Assembly: GCA_963678065.2 (NCBI GenBank)
Contig: CAXXVZ010000005.1
Span: 640,001-704,000 of the forward strand
DNA: 64,000 nt
Reading direction: 5' to 3'
Source: Treponemataceae bacterium
Lineage (GTDB): Bacteria; Spirochaetota; Spirochaetia; Treponematales; Rectinemataceae
Shown here: piece after piece, positions 31,329-40,865 of the stretch
How positions within the stretch are numbered: the stretch's first letter is position 1
How the letters are laid out: each line of letters opens with the position of its first letter
The notes under the pieces: generated by a model
What the model saw: only the letters and a program-made list of their open reading frames with translations
What the model was told of the DNA's origin: nothing
Database searches by the model: none
Translations under genes and position numbers: made by a program

Positions 31329-33146
31329 ATGAGAAAGACAATATTATTTATTATCTCATGCTTTATGCTGCTGTACGGAGCCATCGCCCAGACGAATGAC
31401 GAAAAAGCGCGAACTGCGTACATGTCCGCCATGGAATTGGTAAAAAACGCGAAGCATACAGAGGCGATCGCAAAATTCGACGAGACAATCCGTCTCCTCG
31501 GATCAACGAATGTCAAAATCCAGCCACAGCTTATCCGCTCGCTCGTGGCGATCAAGGATTTCCAGCGAGCCCGCGCGGAAATCGATATTTTCTTCGGCCT
31601 GAAACCGAATAAGTCCCTCGCCGATTACGCCGAGATAACTACTCTGTGCGATTCGCTCGACGCGATCCTTGCCAAAGAAGAATTGGCGTATAGAGCGGCG
31701 ATGGCTCAGAATGACGACAACCTGTACGCCGAATACCTCTCCGCCTATCCTTTCGGGCACTATGTTGAAGATGCAAAACAGAAACGCGACGACGCGGCCT
31801 TCTCTCGCGCAGCGGTCGATGCCTCAAGGAATTCTCTGACAGGGTATCTCGCAGCCTATCCTGCCGGTCTTCACGCACAGGAGGCGAAGGACAAAATCAC
31901 GGCCATTGAAAACGCCGCCTTCGATCGCGCCTCGGCTGAGAATACGTCCGTCGCGTGGGAGTTGTATATCAGGGAATACGCCGGCGGGTCGAGAATCGAC
32001 GATGCGAAGGTTCAGCTCGCCAAATCAAAAGAAGACGCCGCCTACCAGGCTGTGATCGGCAAGACGGAGGACAAGCCCTACGCCGACTATCTCGCCGCCT
32101 ATCCTGCGGGCCGTTATGCGATGGAAATAAAGAGCCTGCGGGACGATGCCGCGTTTTCCCGTGCATCGTACACGGGCACCTGGGAAGGGCTCTGGGCTTA
32201 CGTCGATGTGTACCCCGCAGGTCGTCATATCGGCGACGCAAAAGCCAGGATTGGCAACTTGGAGACCGCCGCCTTCGCCTCGGCAACCTCGGCCAACACC
32301 CCTCAAGCCTGGGAAACGTTCATTAGTAAATATGCACGGGGCGCAAAACTCGCCGAAGCGAAAAAAAAATTGGCTGAAGCGAAGGAATACTCGCTCTATA
32401 AGCTGACGCTGAACCAGACCGAGGACAAGCCCTTCGCCGACTACTTGTCATCATATCCGAACGGGAGATACGCGCAGGACTCGAGAAACGGCAGAGACGA
32501 CGCCGCGTACGCCCGAGCGAGAAAACCGAACACCTGGGAATCGATATGGGCCTACATCGACGCGTTTCCTTCGGGCCGCCACGCGAATGAGGCTCGCGAG
32601 ATCATACGTTTATCCGATAATCGCTTTTTTTCTGAGGCAACCACCACGAACACTCTCTTTTCCTATGACTACTATATAAAAACGTACTGGAGAGGCCAGC
32701 ATGTGACCGAGGCTCGCGCGAAACAGGAACAACTGCGCGCGACGCTCGCCGCGATGGAGAAACAGAAAAAAACCGAGGAACTGAACGCGGAAATCTCAAA
32801 GTATTCATCGACGGCATCCGGAAAATATTTCCTCGGCGGAATCGAGCTTGTCGGAGGTCTCGGACTGGTCTACGCACTATACGAGATGAGCTTCGGCTCG
32901 CTCAGCACCAGCGATTCAGTTTTAAAATACCCCGCGATGGGTGCAGCCGTCGGATTCGCTCCGTTTCTTTTCATAAAGGCTTCCCACAACTTCAAAGATG
33001 GAGCAGCCTATTCGCGGCTGGCTAAGGAATCGAAAGACAAACTGAGCCGCCTGTCGTTTTCCATCGACGTCTCGAACCATGGAAACAGAAACTCCCCGAA
33101 GAATGTCGATGTGGGCTTCTCCATCGTGGTGCCTCTGGAATATTGA
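31329..33146 (+). CDS. Exported alpha-helical repeat protein
   Basis: AGGAGG RBS, Sec signal, TPR-like N-terminus, nine Y..YL..YP.G.H/Y-type repeats, C-terminal hydrophobic segments ending in Tyr. Confidence 0.85.
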   Translation: MRKTILFIISCFMLLYGAIAQTNDEKARTAYMSAMELVKNAKHTEAIAKFDETIRLLGSTNVKIQPQLIRSLVAIKDFQRARAEIDIFFGLKPNKSLADYAEITTLCDSLDAILAKEELAYRAAMAQNDDNLYAEYLSAYPFGHYVEDAKQKRDDAAFSRAAVDASRNSLTGYLAAYPAGLHAQEAKDKITAIENAAFDRASAENTSVAWELYIREYAGGSRIDDAKVQLAKSKEDAAYQAVIGKTEDKPYADYLAAYPAGRYAMEIKSLRDDAAFSRASYTGTWEGLWAYVDVYPAGRHIGDAKARIGNLETAAFASATSANTPQAWETFISKYARGAKLAEAKKKLAEAKEYSLYKLTLNQTEDKPFADYLSSYPNGRYAQDSRNGRDDAAYARARKPNTWESIWAYIDAFPSGRHANEAREIIRLSDNRFFSEATTTNTLFSYDYYIKTYWRGQHVTEARAKQEQLRATLAAMEKQKKTEELNAEISKYSSTASGKYFLGGIELVGGLGLVYALYEMSFGSLSTSDSVLKYPAMGAAVGFAPFLFIKASHNFKDGAAYSRLAKESKDKLSRLSFSIDVSNHGNRNSPKNVDVGFSIVVPLEY

Positions 33147-33249: not shown

Positions 33250-33314
33250 CCGCTCAAGACCTTCGATATGGAAACGAACAAGCGCGACGAGCCGGTCCGC
33301 GCGCAGTCGGGCGG
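33250..33314. repeat. 65-bp element downstream of the FGE-like gene, repeated at 39334-39398
   Basis: CCGCTCAAGACCTTCGATATGGAAACGA(a/t)CAAGCG(c/a)GACGAGCCGGTCCGCGCGCAGTCGGGCGG; 2 mismatches between copies. Confidence 0.9.
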
Positions 33315-33373
33315 GCCTCCCCTGCCTCTTCGGACCTCATCCTTCGGTCCTCTCAGGCAGGTTCTGCCCGCCC
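33309..33373 (-). other. Long GC hairpin/cruciform 3' of the variable repeat (candidate DGR target-recognition element)
   Basis: Three stacked perfect stems GGGCGGGC/GCCCGCCC, CCTGCCT/AGGCAGG and GGACC/GGTCC separated by 4x4 internal loops; starts about 32 nt after the stop; no U-tract. Confidence 0.65.
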
Positions 33374-33405
33374 TCCACCCCCTTCCTTGAGCCCGCACCC
33401 GAACT

Positions 33406-35223
33406 TCAGGGACGACGGGCCAGGCGGAACCCCAGAATATTGCACCTGTAGTCCGGGTAGTAGTAGTTCCGATAGGCCGACCGGCAGCACTCAGCACTGC
33501 CGTACCAGTTGCCGCCGCGATACACGCGGTAGTCGCCAGAGGACGCGCCCATGGGGTCGGTCTGGGCGCCTGATCCATATCTTCCATACCAGTCATGGCA
33601 CCACTCATATACATTCCCGCTCATGTCGTAGAGCCCAAGCTCGTTCGGCGCCTTCGTTCCCACAGCATGCGTCGTTCTCCCCGAATTGCCATTGTACCAA
33701 GCCACCGGGCCAGAATCGTTCGACCCCGCATAGGTATATCCTTTCGACAGCTTCCCCCCGCGGGCCGCGTACTCCCACTCCGCCTCCGTAGGCAGCCGGT
33801 ACCCCTTCCTCGTGAAGTCCGCGTTTACGCTTCCGCCATATATTGTGTATACTTTCTCCAGACCTTTCTTCTCCGATAGCCAGTTGCAGTATGCCACCGC
33901 GTCGTTCCAACTCACGCATACGATCGGGCTTGTCTCCCCCTGCTCAAAGTACGGATTCTTCCATGTTGCGTCCTTTTGCTTCTCCCATCTAGATCCTGTC
34001 AACACATATGAACCATCCCCCCGCTCTGCCTCCGTCCGATAGCCAGTCGCCTCCACAAACTTCCGGAAATTCCCCACTTTCACCTCGTATTTTCCCATAT
34101 AGAACGGCGATACCGTCACCTGATGCGCTTGCTCATCCGAGCCGCCGGATACCGATCCCATCTGGAAAGTACCACCCTCCACGAACACCTCATCCGCGGC
34201 CGCGCGTTCCTCAGGCTTCGGCGTCTTCGCAAGCGCGTCCCGCTTCTTCCCGATCGCCAGATCCACCTTCTTCCTCTCCGCCGCGATCGTCTGTCTCGCC
34301 GCTTCCAGCTCCTTCTCCGCCTTCTCGATCCCGTGCTTCTCTCCCTCCACCCACTCGCGCTTCGTCCTGTCTTCTCCCGTGTCCGTATTCGCCGGCGTCC
34401 CCCAGAAGTCCGCTTCTTCCGCCTTCTTCCTCTCTTCCTCCTTCGCCGCCAATACGCTCTCTTCCTTCCTCACCTCCGCTTTCCACTCCTCGATCGCTTT
34501 CTGCTCCAAGCCCCACAGCCACTCGTGCACCGCGCTCAGGTCAAAGCTCACCTTGCGCACCTTCAGTTTCCCATCATAGTCACCGATCCTGAATCCCTTC
34601 TTTACCAGCGCCTTTGCGTCCTCTATCCTCACCCCCAACACCCCAACTCCCCCGCTTCCCCCATCTCCTGTCTTGAACAACTCCGACCACTCCGGTCTTC
34701 CGGGTACATTGAAGCTGAAGTATTCCTTCTGCTGACCAGCGTTCTTTTCCTTGAACGTTCTCCATTCAGGCGTTTCTGTCCCCCCTGATCCTGTCGAGTG
34801 CAGCAATGGTTTCGCGAACACTCCAGGATCGAGCATCAATCCTTCGCGACTCCACACTTCCCCATAGAGTTCCACGTTGTATACCCTGATCTTTTCCAAC
34901 ACCTCCACCGGGACCTCAGGGCTCCCCGTGTAGCGCTTGATCCATTTCGGCAATCGCACTACCGAGGTTCCCTTCCACTCATTCCACGCAGCGGTGCTGT
35001 CCACGACCGGTTCGCCCATCAGCGTCCACACCTTCCAGTTCACCAGAAATGTTGCACCCCTGTCGAGATTCAATCCTGTACCATCTTCCAAAGACTCTAC
35101 TCTCGCCCATGAAGTCCCTGACACCTCTTCCGCTCCGGCGATCGCCACCCTTGCCATAGTCATTGTCAGGGCCAGCAGCACCACCACCCCCCTCGTCGAT
35201 CGTTTTGACTTCATCGCTTCCAT
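33406..35223 (-). CDS. Exported FGE-sulfatase (SUMF1)-domain, CLec-fold protein; probable DGR target
   Basis: Signal peptide, coiled coil, then GGTFQMGS, VSWNDAVAYCNWLS, YRLPTEAEWEYAARGG, NELGLYDMSGNVYEWC, RGG.W, GFR at the extreme C-terminus; ATG 35223 behind GGGGAGG. Confidence 0.9.
   Translation of the reverse strand: MEAMKSKRSTRGVVVLLALTMTMARVAIAGAEEVSGTSWARVESLEDGTGLNLDRGATFLVNWKVWTLMGEPVVDSTAAWNEWKGTSVVRLPKWIKRYTGSPEVPVEVLEKIRVYNVELYGEVWSREGLMLDPGVFAKPLLHSTGSGGTETPEWRTFKEKNAGQQKEYFSFNVPGRPEWSELFKTGDGGSGGVGVLGVRIEDAKALVKKGFRIGDYDGKLKVRKVSFDLSAVHEWLWGLEQKAIEEWKAEVRKEESVLAAKEEERKKAEEADFWGTPANTDTGEDRTKREWVEGEKHGIEKAEKELEAARQTIAAERKKVDLAIGKKRDALAKTPKPEERAAADEVFVEGGTFQMGSVSGGSDEQAHQVTVSPFYMGKYEVKVGNFRKFVEATGYRTEAERGDGSYVLTGSRWEKQKDATWKNPYFEQGETSPIVCVSWNDAVAYCNWLSEKKGLEKVYTIYGGSVNADFTRKGYRLPTEAEWEYAARGGKLSKGYTYAGSNDSGPVAWYNGNSGRTTHAVGTKAPNELGLYDMSGNVYEWCHDWYGRYGSGAQTDPMGASSGDYRVYRGGNWYGSAECCRSAYRNYYYPDYRCNILGFRLARRP
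33423..33565 (-). repeat. DGR-like variable repeat VR1
   Basis: Ungapped match to 39394-39536 with 20 substitutions, 19 of them at codon positions 1-2. Confidence 0.85.
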
Positions 35224-35312
35224 GCCGGCCTCCCCCAATCCCTTGTTGACTGTTTGTGTCACTACTCAAGCATCATTCTTATTGTTCATTTTTATTGACA
35301 ATATGCACGTTA

Positions 35313-36620
35313 GGCATCGCGCCAAAATAATTTGACTGCTTTTATTCTTTAGTCGGAAGCAAAGCATAGTTCCAATCGCCATGGAATTTTGCCTGCTTAA
35401 TGTTCAGGGCAGCAAGTTCTTCATCACTAACCTTGATCCCGAGTGGATACGAACCTGAATCCAATTCTGCGCATATTTTCAGTCCCGCTGCAGTGGTTGT
35501 ATTTGCAATCAATTGAATAATTACCTCGTGGCTAATCAACGGTCGGCCTCGCCAGTTCTGAGTGATATGGCAAAACATTCGGTGCTCGATTTTATTCCAT
35601 TTGCTGGTACCTGGTGGAAAGTGACACACGTGAATTGACATTCCAAGCTGATTCGCTAATTCGTGCAATGCAAGTTTCCAGAGCCGACATCGACTACCGT
35701 TGCTGCCACCACCATCAGCGGTAATCAGCAATTCTTTTGCAGTACGATACCGTTTCACACCCATTTTTTCCCACCAACGTCGGATGGCTTCGGCAGCAAA
35801 ATGTGCGGTATCGTGGTCGATTCCTACACTGACCCAGCCCTTGTTTTCGCTTATATCGAAGACTCCGTATGGTATGGCCTTGCCCAGCTCTGTATCAATG
35901 AAGTCATGAACCATTACAGATTCCGGTTCACCTTTGGGACGCCATTCTCGTCCTCCATTTCGAAATTCCCCAATCAATTCTTTCTTTTTCGTATCTACCG
36001 AGATAACTGGATTCCCTTTACGCTGAAACCGCTTGACCATGGTGTTGATATACTCAAACTGCGCATTTCGATCCGGATGCGACGTTCCTTCTTTGGTCTT
36101 CCGATTGCTCTGTAGACTGTAGCCTTCCGCGTTCAGTAGCCGTCCAACCGTGCGCGGGCTTACTGTGTGCCCTTGTCGTGTAAGCGTATCTGCAAGATTA
36201 CTGGTGCTCAGGCACGTCCACTGTAGTGGCGACTCTGGATCACCCCGTGTCATTGGTTCAATTAAGCTCGTAAGTTTTTCCCTTAACTCGGGATCGTTTT
36301 CACTGCATCGTTTTCTTCCACCGCCTGGGAAACGTACGCGAGTGCGTATCTTCTCGTGCGGATTACTTTCGCGTAATGCCAGCTCATTCATTCCTTTGCG
36401 TATTGTGTTCGGCGACATCTTAATCGCGGTATTGACTGCCTGTATCCCACCACGACCATACGCTCTTGCTTCAGCCGCCGCCCATTGACGTCGCATTCGT
36501 TCATCCATCATGGGCACAAGTGCGTTGTACTTGGAAGCTATTTGTTTTACCGTTGCCTGATCTTGCATACTTCATTATAATATAATCAATATATTAGTCA
36601 AGTTATTTTGACGCATTGCC
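35313..36620 (-). mobile_element. ISAzo13-family insertion sequence (1308 bp)
   Basis: 25-bp terminal IRs GGCATCGCGCCAAAATAATTTGACT / GGCAATGCGTCAAAATAACTTGACT (4 mismatches), flanked by TTA duplication (35310-35312, 36621-36623). Confidence 0.9.
35342..36568 (-). CDS. ISAzo13-family DDE transposase
   Basis: TRGDPESPLQWT, HPDRNAQF, ISVDTKKKE, ADGGGSN, PPGTSKWNKIEHR, FHGDWNY. Confidence 0.95.
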   Translation of the reverse strand: MQDQATVKQIASKYNALVPMMDERMRRQWAAAEARAYGRGGIQAVNTAIKMSPNTIRKGMNELALRESNPHEKIRTRVRFPGGGRKRCSENDPELREKLTSLIEPMTRGDPESPLQWTCLSTSNLADTLTRQGHTVSPRTVGRLLNAEGYSLQSNRKTKEGTSHPDRNAQFEYINTMVKRFQRKGNPVISVDTKKKELIGEFRNGGREWRPKGEPESVMVHDFIDTELGKAIPYGVFDISENKGWVSVGIDHDTAHFAAEAIRRWWEKMGVKRYRTAKELLITADGGGSNGSRCRLWKLALHELANQLGMSIHVCHFPPGTSKWNKIEHRMFCHITQNWRGRPLISHEVIIQLIANTTTAAGLKICAELDSGSYPLGIKVSDEELAALNIKQAKFHGDWNYALLPTKE

Positions 36621-36730
36621 TTAGTATGTCGATGCCCAGACAAACGACGAAACGATATATAAATATGAACCTTCCATCGGAGACGAGATCGGCTGCCAGG
36701 CAATCGCTTGTGGTACTTCGTGACGATCCG

Positions 36731-36766
36731 CAGGATGTGAGGTCTCGAAGGAGGCCTCACATCCTG
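36731..36766. terminator. 16-bp stem-loop downstream of the C45 peptidase gene
   Basis: CAGGATGTGAGGTCTC-gaag-GAGGCCTCACATCCTG. Confidence 0.5.
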
Positions 36767-36858
36767 TTCTCTGATTCATGGACGCTTCACGAGGATACTC
36801 GTCAGATGAATGGGTTCTTTCCCTCCAACCTGTCATCTATCGGGCTCCTGTTCCGGAC

Positions 36859-38538
36859 TCAGATATAGTTGGAAAGATGAATTGTGACCCAATCATCAGA
36901 GTAGTATCCAAAGTGACTGGTCATTATCTTGTCTGTTAAATCACATAGACTGACACTGCCCTTGATTTCTTTCTCAGATCCGCCGTAGTAGGCTCCATAT
37001 TTGCCCTGAGGGTTTAAAAAATCGATCAGTGTTTTCGCCGCATCCCAATCGATTTCTCCATATACCTCCAAGCATTCTCTGTTCAATGTATCATACCTCC
37101 AGATGATATCTGCCATATTTTCTACGGCAAGTTCATTGGTATAGCGGTGCATCGCGCAGATACGCATTTCAGGTATTAAAAACATATTACTAACAACTAC
37201 AAGATCATCATACTGCTCGCGTTGTGGATGGAAGTATAAACCCTCATGCACATTATCGTCCTTTATCCAGGACTTGTTGATCATATCATTGACTCCAAAC
37301 ATATTCTCATTATATATATATCCAAATATATTAAATAAATCCTTATTGCAGTTCAAATATGCAGAAGGATATTTCCAGTCATTCCATCGTTCATACAATC
37401 CCTGATTTGAAGGGACTATTTCAGGAAGTCGAGCTTTCTCAAGAATGTTTTCCACTTTACCATGGCGTGGTATACGTGCTAAATAATCATGCGGATCGAG
37501 CTCGGCATCTTTTTGACCAGACTCAACGATGACCGCAGTATTTGTCGATCCGTCTCCTACCGGATATAGCCAGGATGCACCTCGCTGTGAGTCGACAATC
37601 GCGTCAACAACAGATTGCGCATTTTTCCCGACTGACAAGGCATGCCTTACCATAAGTAATGATCCTATTCCGGGCCTCATGGGATCACACAAAACAGAGG
37701 GAACCATATCGACTCCCATTGCGACACCGCTCCTGTTCATACCCGTGATACTGCCAACGAATCCAGGAGCTGTCTGGCTCACAAGTGGAATTTGATCCCC
37801 TTGGGGATTATATATTATTATGCAAGCTAAATCCTGGAACACCTTGGCATTGCTGAATTGAAAATCTCTGCCAAAATAGAAATGCTTGTTTTTTGTCGCA
37901 TTTTTGAACGCCGCAAAGGCGTTACATCCAAGGGGTAAACGAAAATTGTTTGGACCTGTCTCTATCCGGCAATCTCTCTCGCCAGGTGGAAGCATGTCTA
38001 CATAATCTTTTCGAATTCGAGCCAACCCCGCGTTCGTGTAAACCACAGCGACAAGAAAATCAATTCCAACATTTAGTAAGAACAGATTTTCGTAGCTTAC
38101 TCTTGTGTGAGGATTAATCTCCTTGCAGCCAGCAGCCATCCCGCGCATCTCATCATGAAGCTCTTGTGGAATATCTCCCATGTTTTCATTTAAACTGTAA
38201 GTATTCCAACAACTATTTTTAACCGCCCATAAAAGCATTTTGAAAATAAAATCATTTTCTTTCCGTAAAAAATCAGGGATTATATTTTCCATGTATGTAC
38301 TCGTCATTATGCTGATTTCTTTTTCGAGTAATTCACCGATAAGAAATCCCATTTGATAGTTTGTCCCTTCCACATAGATGACTTTCTTTTCTACCTGTTC
38401 GCCATCCCTGGTTCTGTTAGTAGTGGTTTTCGCCAATATTCCCCTTCCCTGATTCCCATTGCAGAAAACAGTTTTCACACCAACAGGCGTCAACCCATCA
38501 GCTCTAAACGCATCATAAATCTCATCATTTGTTTTCAT
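36859..38538 (-). CDS. C45-family autoproteolytic Ntn-hydrolase (acyltransferase/peptidase)
   Basis: EMRGMAAG, G|CNAFAA..AT....YFGRDF, PGFVGSITGMNRSGV; CAGGAGG RBS; visibly AT-rich. Confidence 0.8.
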   Translation of the reverse strand: MKTNDEIYDAFRADGLTPVGVKTVFCNGNQGRGILAKTTTNRTRDGEQVEKKVIYVEGTNYQMGFLIGELLEKEISIMTSTYMENIIPDFLRKENDFIFKMLLWAVKNSCWNTYSLNENMGDIPQELHDEMRGMAAGCKEINPHTRVSYENLFLLNVGIDFLVAVVYTNAGLARIRKDYVDMLPPGERDCRIETGPNNFRLPLGCNAFAAFKNATKNKHFYFGRDFQFSNAKVFQDLACIIIYNPQGDQIPLVSQTAPGFVGSITGMNRSGVAMGVDMVPSVLCDPMRPGIGSLLMVRHALSVGKNAQSVVDAIVDSQRGASWLYPVGDGSTNTAVIVESGQKDAELDPHDYLARIPRHGKVENILEKARLPEIVPSNQGLYERWNDWKYPSAYLNCNKDLFNIFGYIYNENMFGVNDMINKSWIKDDNVHEGLYFHPQREQYDDLVVVSNMFLIPEMRICAMHRYTNELAVENMADIIWRYDTLNRECLEVYGEIDWDAAKTLIDFLNPQGKYGAYYGGSEKEIKGSVSLCDLTDKIMTSHFGYYSDDWVTIHLSNYI

Positions 38539-39333
38539 GTGAACCTCCTGAAACAGGTAAAGCATCCCACTGACCACTCAACCGCAGACCCACATAATTC
38601 GTGACAAAAAATAAATACACTTTCCGGAACTGCAATCATGCTCACAAGTCTCACGACGGGGTACTGCGTTTCACATCGTGGAGTAAAACTAGGAAGTTTT
38701 TGAAATGCTTGAGTTCGCTTTTCAAAGCTGCGTTTTATCAGAGAAACAGTATTCCTGCAAGAAATTATCCGATGCAAAACATCAACCCGCTCATCGGAGT
38801 GAACCCATGTTTGATTATCAATCCTAATTTAACTTAAGTAAATGATTATATTTTATATTTACATATCACAGGATAGTGGTTTAGGACAAGTCTTCGCCAG
38901 AGTCTTTATCTCTGCTTCAGAGCGCGCGCACTAGACGAAATCCGATATAGCCTCGCCGGTACGATAAGATCATGTGGTGCCGATCACTGCTCCATATAAA
39001 CAGCACCATGCCGTCAGATGCCTCTCCGATACAAGATTGATGTCACGGGACGCCAAATCACTGTAGCGTCAGCCGCAATAAAACGCGCACCGCTACTTGC
39101 CCCTTCCTTATATCAGCCTGGCAAGCGCTTCCGGTCTATCCCGCACCGACGCTGGCAAATTGACTGGCTTCCAGTCTACAAGGCAAATCCCATTCACTAC
39201 GGTGCGCCCGTTACGGAGTGCGGCGGGGCAGACAAGAGCGCGGGTGAAACCTGCTCCATCCTTCACGACGGCTATCTCGTTGGCTACATGGCCACGAAGC
39301 GTCAAATCGATCGTTTTAAAGAAGTGTATCGTC

Positions 39334-39398
39334 CCGCTCAAGACCTTCGATATGGAAACGATCAAGCGAGACGAGCCGGTCCGCGCGCAGTCGGGCGG
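39334..39398. repeat. Second copy of the 65-bp downstream element
   Basis: Matches 33250-33314 and joins directly onto VR2 through GGCGG. Confidence 0.9.
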
Positions 39399-39738
39399 AA
39401 CCCCAGATTACTGCACCTGATGACCGGGTAGTAGTTGCCCCGATAGGCCGACCGGCAGTACACGGCATTGTTGTACCAGCTGCCGCCGCGAAGCACGCGG
39501 AGGTCGCCACAGGACGCGCCCATGGGGTCGGTCTGGACCCTAATCCATAGCCTCCATACCGGTCATGGCACCACTCCCACACATTGCCGTTCATGTCATA
39601 CAACCCCAGTTCGTTCGGCGCCTTCGCCCCCCGGCATGCGTCGTTCTCCCCGAATTGCCATTGTACCAAGCCACTGGGCCAAGATCGTTCGATCCCTCAT
39701 AGGTATATTCCCTCGACAGCTTCCCCCGCGGGACGCGT
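39394..39738 (-). pseudogene. Remnant of a second FGE/CLec-domain gene including variable repeat VR2
   Basis: Collinear with 33423-33770; encodes [21 protein letters not shown] and, after a frameshift, [42 protein letters not shown]. Confidence 0.9.
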
Positions 39739-40865
39739 CGATCGTGTCCGTATCCCAGGAGAGGACGACGCGCAATCCCGATTCCGGATTGCGGATGAGT
39801 CGCGGATCGAACTCCGGTAGCACGGACGAGCTGGCCCAGGCCTCGCAGCTTTGTAGGGTGATCAAGGCGTTGAGCTCCTCAAGCGCGACCATCGTGACGA
39901 TAACGCCGGCTCCCGGCGCGGTTCCTCATTCATGATCACATCACGGAGAAGAGACATGGCCTCGGCGAGGTCAGCCGCGGAACGCAGCGATTTTGCCCTT
40001 CCGGCAAGGGCCAGGGCGAGATCCCGAGCCGCGGGGCAGATGGTCAGATGATGCCGAGTCTCGCTCGTGGACGATCGGGGCTGCCCGCGTAGCGCGTTCG
40101 CCCAAGAAAAAATATTGCCCCCCAGCAGTCCTCTCGACGGAAACAATTCGCTCGGGGAGGCTGGAAAGGGATATCCACAGATCATCGTCCGGATCGACAT
40201 CGTGCAACTCTACTTCGGCAATCCACCCATCGCCGGAGGGCGAAAACTCCGCCCTCCCGTGTCCTCCGACTCGGGGCGCCACATCGACACCAGCCACCTG
40301 TGCGTGGAGCGTCAGCTTCCCGATCCGTTCCCTGGCGGGAAATGTAATCGCCGCCGTGCATTGCCCGCAGCGAATGTCGCAAACTTCTCGACATAACGAA
40401 TCTTGGCCGTCCGCGTTCCCAACGCCGGAAAAGGATAAATCCTTGTCCGGTACACGTGCCAGCGACCTGTTCCACGAATCCGGGGTCGGTGACGACTGGC
40501 CGATAAACCTGGGTCTCGAAGGCGATGCGAGCCTTGTCCTTTTTTATGATGGCCCCATCGGTCAGAAGGCCGTTCACATCAAGCGCGTATCCCGTGACTG
40601 CGGCCCCATCCGGCAAAGGGATGGTGAGTTCCCCCTCCATCACCCATCTGTTGGGATTGCGCAATATCAACGTCGCCTCTGTTTCGGCGAAGACGCCGAC
40701 GATTCTCGTCCTCACGTCCATGGACGCTATGCTGATCGACTCCGTGCCCGCGTACAGCAGCCCAGCGGCGGTCGAGGAGGTTGCGAGGTTTTCCCCACCT
40801 GATAAATTCTGCGCTTGTATCCCTGCCGTCTGGATTAAGAAGAAAAAGCATTGTGATGCCGACAC
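39735..40865 (-). pseudogene. Degraded VIT-domain/DUF2135-type exported protein
   Basis: VIT-like segment (AETEATLILRNPNRWVMEGELTIPLPDGAAVTGYALDVNG..ARIAFE..DPG) and C-terminal ARDLALAL..ALEELN..LRVVLSWDTD in different frames, far shorter than an intact gene. Confidence 0.75.

Follow-up and report, generated by a model that had tools for sequence, protein, structure and literature searches.

How does a gene come to carry the footprint of a diversity-generating retroelement (DGR) in a genome in which no such element is found? The question is raised by a 64,000-nt stretch (hereafter the window) of Treponemataceae bacterium (Rectinemataceae), positions 640,001 to 704,000 of contig CAXXVZ010000005.1 in assembly GCA_963678065.2, where a preliminary description made from the letters alone had pointed to two DGR-type variable repeats (VRs), one at the end of a gene for an exported protein with a formylglycine-generating enzyme (FGE)-type C-type lectin (CLec) domain and one at the end of a remnant copy. 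We consider it probable (roughly 0.7) that this gene is an orphan DGR target, which was rewritten within ∼0.2% strain divergence and now stands without its cassette. The features on which the argument rests are as follows.

33406-35223, minus strand: target gene, 605 aa, with an ATG at 35223 (the open reading frame (ORF) finder extends the start to a GTG at 35262); from N to C terminus, a signal peptide, an unnamed domain, a helical stalk and the FGE/CLec domain
35134-35223, minus strand: putative Sec signal peptide, recognized by eye from a basic start, a hydrophobic run and a small-residue cleavage site, with no Cys
34384-35133, minus strand: unnamed N-terminal domain and the beginning of the stalk (aa 31-280)
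33415-34197, minus strand: FGE-sulfatase-like (CLec) domain
33437-33565, minus strand: VR1, with its variable sites within 33437-33539
39394-39536, minus strand: VR2, a frozen variable repeat that shares the VR1 backbone

The exact same 605-aa protein was found in the searched protein collection, as P0010. Its CLec domain (PF03781, E 3e-61) reaches the last residues, and the best solved relative of this domain is TvpA of Treponema denticola (PDB 2Y3C, E 6e-37); the earlier view of the gene as an exported, TvpA-like target is thus supported, with export being a prediction. The protein is most likely a secreted or surface ligand binder, judging by its layout, with a variable tip and a helical stalk on a conserved N-terminal module. 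The enzyme SUMF1/FGE belongs to the same fold family (PF03781; PDB matches at E 1e-25), and its active-site part presumably corresponds to the hypervariable part of the target. As that part is hypervariable and the cysteines of the target vary among alleles (Tyr replaces Cys579 in two others, and Ile replaces Cys594 in one), an enzymatic role appears unlikely. Among the 16 runs listed, no RNA dataset held the target gene, and literature searches, whose coverage did not extend to the N-terminal domain, listed no paper on this gene.

The first evidence for DGR action comes from the repeat pair. A gap-free alignment of positions 33423-33565 with 39394-39536 shows 20 differences in 143 nt, 19 of them at codon positions 1-2 and 16 with A in one copy, just as the preliminary description had stated, and all 12 of the codon pairs that it named (TAC/CTC, AAC/AGC and so on) are present. 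Composition alone would give A to 0.37 of the differences, and the observed share is higher (binomial p = 1e-4). Upstream of the VRs, the same pair differs by 27 substitutions in ∼205 nt and by three one-base gaps; these differences had been described as largely synonymous third-position changes and indels, and although the indels are there, only 13 of the 27 substitutions fall at third positions, so that this part of the claim was overstated. The codon-position bias of the VR pair differs from that of the upstream part (Fisher p = 0.001), whereas the difference in the A share (16/20 versus 14/27) is not significant (p = 0.07). With one third-position difference in 143 nt of VR as against 13 in ∼205 nt upstream, one backbone must have been copied into the 3′ ends of two diverged paralogues. 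The pair statistics and this single backbone in two diverged genes support the proposal that a single AAY-rich DGR template gave rise to both tails.

A comparison between strains points to the same process. The sister protein P0001 has no differences from the target in residues 1-563, and 15 substitutions and a one-residue deletion in residues 564-596; a strain that is ∼99.8% identical yet differs at 16 of the last 42 residues of the target lends support, between strains, to the claim that the tail is hypervariable. At the DNA level, four of the 16 listed runs (X1, X4, X5 and X6) were compared with the window by way of Logan contigs. In the groundwater metagenome X5, two of 1,638 nt differ across the gene body (33676-35313), whereas 19 substitutions and a 3-nt deletion fall in the contig that spans 33408-33694; 15 of these substitutions are listed directly, and the other four are inferred from P0001, whose allele X5 matches. 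All 15 lie in 33438-33534, and 14 of them are at codon positions 1-2, so that in both comparisons nearly all changes within the VR, at the 3′ end of a CLec gene, are at the first two codon positions (19 of 20 and 14 of 15 sites). Four flanking contigs of X5 show 11 differences in 5,050 nt (Fisher p = 1e-17 versus the VR contig), a count that leaves out insertion-sequence contigs, one difference-free contig of 553 nt and a short contig downstream of the stop codon. Relative to the flanks, change is in ∼30-fold excess in the VR contig and in ∼90-fold excess when only the variable stretch is counted. There are four sites at which neither window copy has A, and at one of these, 33522, X5 does. No difference is listed for X5 in 33535-33694 of the VR contig, or in VR2. 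X5 also holds, at window positions 33321-33458, a second FGE-type sequence (depth 6) with the same VR 3′ end. The contigs of X1 and X4 show VR1 just as in the window, as do those of X6 where they cover it, and no A-restricted polymorphism within a population was seen in the contigs of these three runs, which drop rare variants.

Relatives of this genome provide templates with which the variable sites can be compared. A DGR reverse transcriptase (RT) match at E≤1e-40 was found in 5 of 69 family genomes, and three family loci hold complete target-HRDC-RT-template cassettes, in which 18/20, 16/16 and 25/25 VR mismatches fall at template A and the VR lies 1,768-1,812 nt from the template; a metagenome contig, L041, is similar (19/19 mismatches, spacing 1,782 nt). 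These templates are non-cognate, being identical to VR1 at no more than 93 of 133 nt. Nevertheless, in each of seven non-cognate templates set in gap-free register, A underlies 18-22 of the 27 variable sites versus 10-19 of the 90 others (p from 6e-6 to 9e-11), although the seven tests are not independent because the templates are related. Variable codons align over AAC/AAT template codons, and the codon deleted in the sister allele lies over a tandem AAC run; codon-sized indels beside AAC runs are a DGR product described by Wu et al. (PMC5758913). L041 (UMKN01065669.1, 377-5847) is in itself a complete two-target HRDC-type DGR near a mobilisation-like gene, and its targets, judged by eye, are fimbrillin-like lipoproteins with FGE tips. 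Two further family relatives with fragmented assemblies, G020 (L028, L031) and G083 (L026), have VR-like FGE gene ends and no DGR RT match at E≤1e-40.

The genome itself gave no cassette. Its assembly has five contigs, 5.27 Mb, 99.94% completeness and 6.7% contamination, and no template was found in it by blastn at word size 7, by a scan for AAY runs or by an all-against-all scan for A bias. The blastn search returned the two copies, a third FGE gene on contig C2 at 75-79% identity, a 52-nt piece on contig C3 and nothing else, and a DGR self-match scan of 37,447 ungapped matches gave 12 with a one-sided A/T bias of at least 0.75, of which 11 lie in a repeat array, and no DGR pair. There are six PF00078 matches in the assembly, whose translations resemble group II intron maturases; three of the four scanned with TIGR04416 pass, with the fourth reaching 271 of 300. 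A profile of five DGR RTs scores them at no more than 80 bits, and we thus found no DGR-clade RT in the assembly. Nor did it yield a match to PF22296 (bAvd), or a small DGR-type HRDC gene, the sole clear HRDC match being the end of a 745-aa ORF. In this genome the target thus does not belong to a complete DGR, as neither template nor DGR RT nor accessory gene was found in the assembly. That the window holds neither template nor RT, as first reported, is therefore true of the rest of the assembly as well; the suggestion that a template elsewhere in this genome services a remote target is not supported, and the proposed BLASTN search for an A-rich non-coding copy beside a DGR RT or avd fails in this assembly.

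Two candidates from within the genome were considered and set aside. Group II intron RTs were rejected as the mutator, since A-specific infidelity is not known for them. We also rejected the idea that the template of VR1 and VR2 wrote the FGE gene at C2:145955-146995. Of the 97 sites at which VR1 and VR2 agree, this gene departs from them at 22, 13 of which lack A; with 13 non-A backbone differences, it is probably an orphan of a different template. This gene (L009/L024) is lipoprotein-like, with a Thr-rich linker, a VR-like end and a similar motif after its stop codon. Elsewhere, ∼50 kb past the end of the window, C5:754674-931303 has 176 same-strand blast matches to a ∼160-nt repeat with attC-like ends, with a tyrosine integrase (C5:931946-932416) beside the end of the array and a group II intron RT (C5:773956) inside it, and looks like a large sedentary integron array.

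Wider searches were also negative for a cognate template. None was found by DNA search in 61 relatives, 69 family genomes, 401 order genomes and 401 phylum genomes (overlapping sets), in which the best identity outside the own genome over the full VR was 70-75%, and phages and plasmids gave no match. A scan with the backbone motif gave no matches in viral contigs, five Thermoguttaceae loci in GTDB and two metagenome contigs, one of which is L041 with its complete non-cognate cassette. In X1, an 8,918-nt contig at depth 4.7 (host, 27-31) holds an FGE piece 84% like the target and two VR-like pieces ∼1,804 nt apart, and it has the shape of a complete HRDC-type cassette, probably from another organism. 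For its second VR-like piece, only three other letters are listed relative to VR2, which would be too few for a template.

Candidate signals of a DGR target are found at the 3′ end of the gene and just beyond it, where the following features lie.

33406-33436, minus strand: constant 3′ end of the target gene, like an initiation of mutagenic homing (IMH) site by position, with its function inferred
33310-33372, minus strand: GC-rich interrupted inverted repeat downstream of the stop codon, a candidate target hairpin

No difference is listed in 33408-33436 in any allele, and in relatives VR and template diverge at the point matching this constant end of VR1. The candidate hairpin has a z of −3.1 on 111 nt and −5.5 on a stretch chosen around it, as compared to −0.2 and −0.6 for two neighbouring stretches. 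In BPP-1, efficient homing requires a hairpin downstream of the VR, according to PMC3240598, and a hairpin in this position is given for 34% of DGRs in PMC5758913. Both the IMH-like end and the hairpin are present at VR1 and deleted at VR2; their function is putative.

The second copy and the surroundings of both copies have the following features.

39394-39738, minus strand: paralogous target remnant, with three one-base gaps upstream of VR2
33250-33314, minus strand: 65-nt segment downstream of the target, common to the remnant (39334-39398, 97%)
39739-40865, minus strand: frameshifted VIT-domain gene piece, joined directly to the remnant on its upstream side
36859-38577, minus strand: AT-rich C45-family peptidase-like gene between target and remnant, not part of a DGR
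35310-36620, minus strand: ISAzo13-type insertion sequence, 87 nt upstream of the target start codon

The remnant has lost 113 nt, comprising the last codons, the stop codon and the hairpin, through a deletion bounded by 5-nt direct repeats; this second copy is a pseudogene, a dead paralogue stripped of its target signals. As X5 carries the remnant nearly unchanged, its death predates the split of the strains. No decayed HRDC or RT piece was found between target and remnant. The ISAzo13-type element has seven near-identical copies in the genome, and the X5 strain has none at the target (joint 35309-36621). Convergent with the target gene, window positions 31329-33146 on the plus strand encode a 605-aa exported protein with ∼118-aa internal repeats and no Pfam family.

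The reading that best fits these data is that the C-terminal CLec domain of an exported protein was the target of an HRDC-type, Treponema-like DGR. A template RNA would have been reverse-transcribed with random bases opposite its adenines, a mechanism known from the literature whose footprint is seen here, and the cDNA would have replaced the last ∼130 nt of the gene, recoding surface residues and keeping scaffold codons. A single template would have written VR1, VR2 and the sister allele, and the contrast between alleles shows at least one rewriting after the split from the ∼99.8%-identical strain, presumably by retrohoming in place. The cassette would then have been lost in this lineage, or never gained while the sister lineage had one. 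VR1 would be frozen because the lineage now has no cassette, though its IMH-like end and hairpin look intact; VR2 would have died earlier, through the deletion of its stop codon and hairpin.

Several observations weigh against this account. Neither copy has A at 4 of the 20 sites at which VR1 and VR2 differ, neither partner has A at 5 of the 19 X5 differences, and one variable site, 33493, falls at a third codon position. As P0001 and X5 share an allele, and could stem from a single sample, they are counted as one. The cognate template was not found, and the A-to-N comparison of template with VR therefore rests on non-cognate templates. The assembly is in five contigs with gaps of unsized length, and the sameness of VR1 across runs is weak evidence that it is frozen because Logan contigs drop rare variants. 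Finally, six substitutions and one insertion, among them a change in the last base of the stop codon, in a short contig of X5 that lies just past the stop are left unexplained by this account; because P0001 keeps its stop, this contig may belong to a second FGE-type locus, perhaps a further target absent from this genome.

As a first alternative, the target could still be active, with its cassette in this very strain, within an assembly gap or on an unassembled replicon. The five contigs end in unique sequence, the target signals are intact, the rewriting is very recent and remote targets are typical of this DGR type (PMC5758913). However, marker completeness is 99.94% and an unbroken X1 contig spans VR1 without differences, and we regard a hidden cassette as unlikely; the depth of VR1 in X1 (28-34) would leave no room for a second full-depth copy there, judging by listed rows that do not extend to VR2. 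It is also doubtful, and about as poorly placed, that a further target written by this template donated the sister tail through recombination or gene conversion, in which case DGR activity could be older. The second FGE-type sequence in X5, with its VR1 3′ end, and the divergent short contig past the stop would suit such a swap, but no difference is listed in 33535-33694 of the X5 contig, where a remnant-like paralogue differs by 13%, and the exchange would need to start exactly at the template-matched part.

A cassette on a mobile element, or in a minority of cells, might instead have passed through and rewritten chromosomal targets in trans. The low-depth X1 contig, with a spacing of VR-like pieces that matches the cassettes of relatives, the patchy occurrence of cassettes in the family (5 of 69 genomes) and the action in trans of a plasmid-borne DGR in the laboratory, as described in PMC5758913, all favor this, although the FGE piece of that contig is only 84% like the target and may belong to another organism, and phages, plasmids and viral contigs gave no match; we hold a transient visit to be improbable. 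That no DGR was involved, and that the pattern came from paralogues diverging in the ordinary way, under diversifying selection of a binding tip, would agree with a genome without template or RT, but is very hard to reconcile with a ∼30-fold excess of change over the flanks, almost no third-position change and variable sites that match template adenines of relatives. We thus retain an orphan target, recently rewritten and now without a cassette, as the best explanation.

Compared to known systems, the locus resembles TvpA of T. denticola and the HRDC-type "Architecture C" DGRs, with CLec1/FGE targets of category b, in the classification of Wu et al. 2018 (PMC5758913). It shares with the TvpA type a C-terminal FGE-type CLec domain, a VR in the last ∼43 codons, variation at codon positions 1-2 and several dispersed targets, and with HRDC-type DGRs the target-HRDC-RT-template cassettes seen in its family relatives. 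Unlike the TvpA type, this genome has no cassette, and the target has a probable Sec signal with no lipoprotein Cys and a 340-residue N-terminal module and stalk without a family name. T. denticola isolates without RT or template likewise carry VR-bearing genes, which have been read as remains of cassette loss (2016, PMC4891356). In that case the cognate template is known from other isolates, whereas here none was found; unlike them, the present locus has a near-identical strain pair that dates the last rewriting to within ∼0.2% divergence. Cassette-less targets are thus an already described kind, found here on a protein whose front end is an unnamed family.

That front end, which the preliminary description did not recognize, indeed has no family in Pfam, NCBIfam or PHROGs and no usable match in the ESM Atlas, and by profile it has no match in the PDB (best E 0.055). 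With HMMER, 57 representatives of the module (aa 31-280) were recovered at E≤0.001, with a clear motif set. In 59 module relatives scanned for domains, we found WG repeats in 15 (one under the cut-off), vWA in 4, Fib_succ_major in 3, FGE in 2 (one of them P0001), and carboxypeptidase-regulatory, Sel1, cadherin and Lcl_C (which we take to be DUF1566) in one each. No other domain was found in 31. Fib_succ_major and DUF1566 domains are themselves DGR target classes (PMC5758913). Because the module occurs in 1 of 201 genomes of the order, namely this one, and sits in a lower-GC stretch, its distribution suggests recent acquisition. We take the module to be a probable exported carrier whose helical stalk bears a binding tip that can be exchanged. 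It is tempting, though speculative and on balance unlikely, to join this to the passage of mobile cassettes: the target would be kept retrohoming-ready and rewritten only when a cassette visits (perhaps that of the 8.9-kb X1 contig), giving punctuated, strain-by-strain renewal of the tip, and the module would serve for display in general, with a tip that changes on two time scales: through the swapping of domains (WG repeat, vWA and three CLec types) and through DGR mutagenesis.

A conserved carrier of binding domains that can be interchanged, the module is a small lead in its own right. As regards DGRs, surveys anchored on the RT miss targets distant from it, according to PMC8144416, and orphan targets such as this one would consequently be undercounted. 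An internal clock of the kind provided here, with strains ∼0.2% apart that differ at 16 of the last 42 residues, is rare. Recent rewriting of the tail, together with one strain that has no cassette, implies that the gain or loss of a chromosomal DGR can outpace the divergence of strains.

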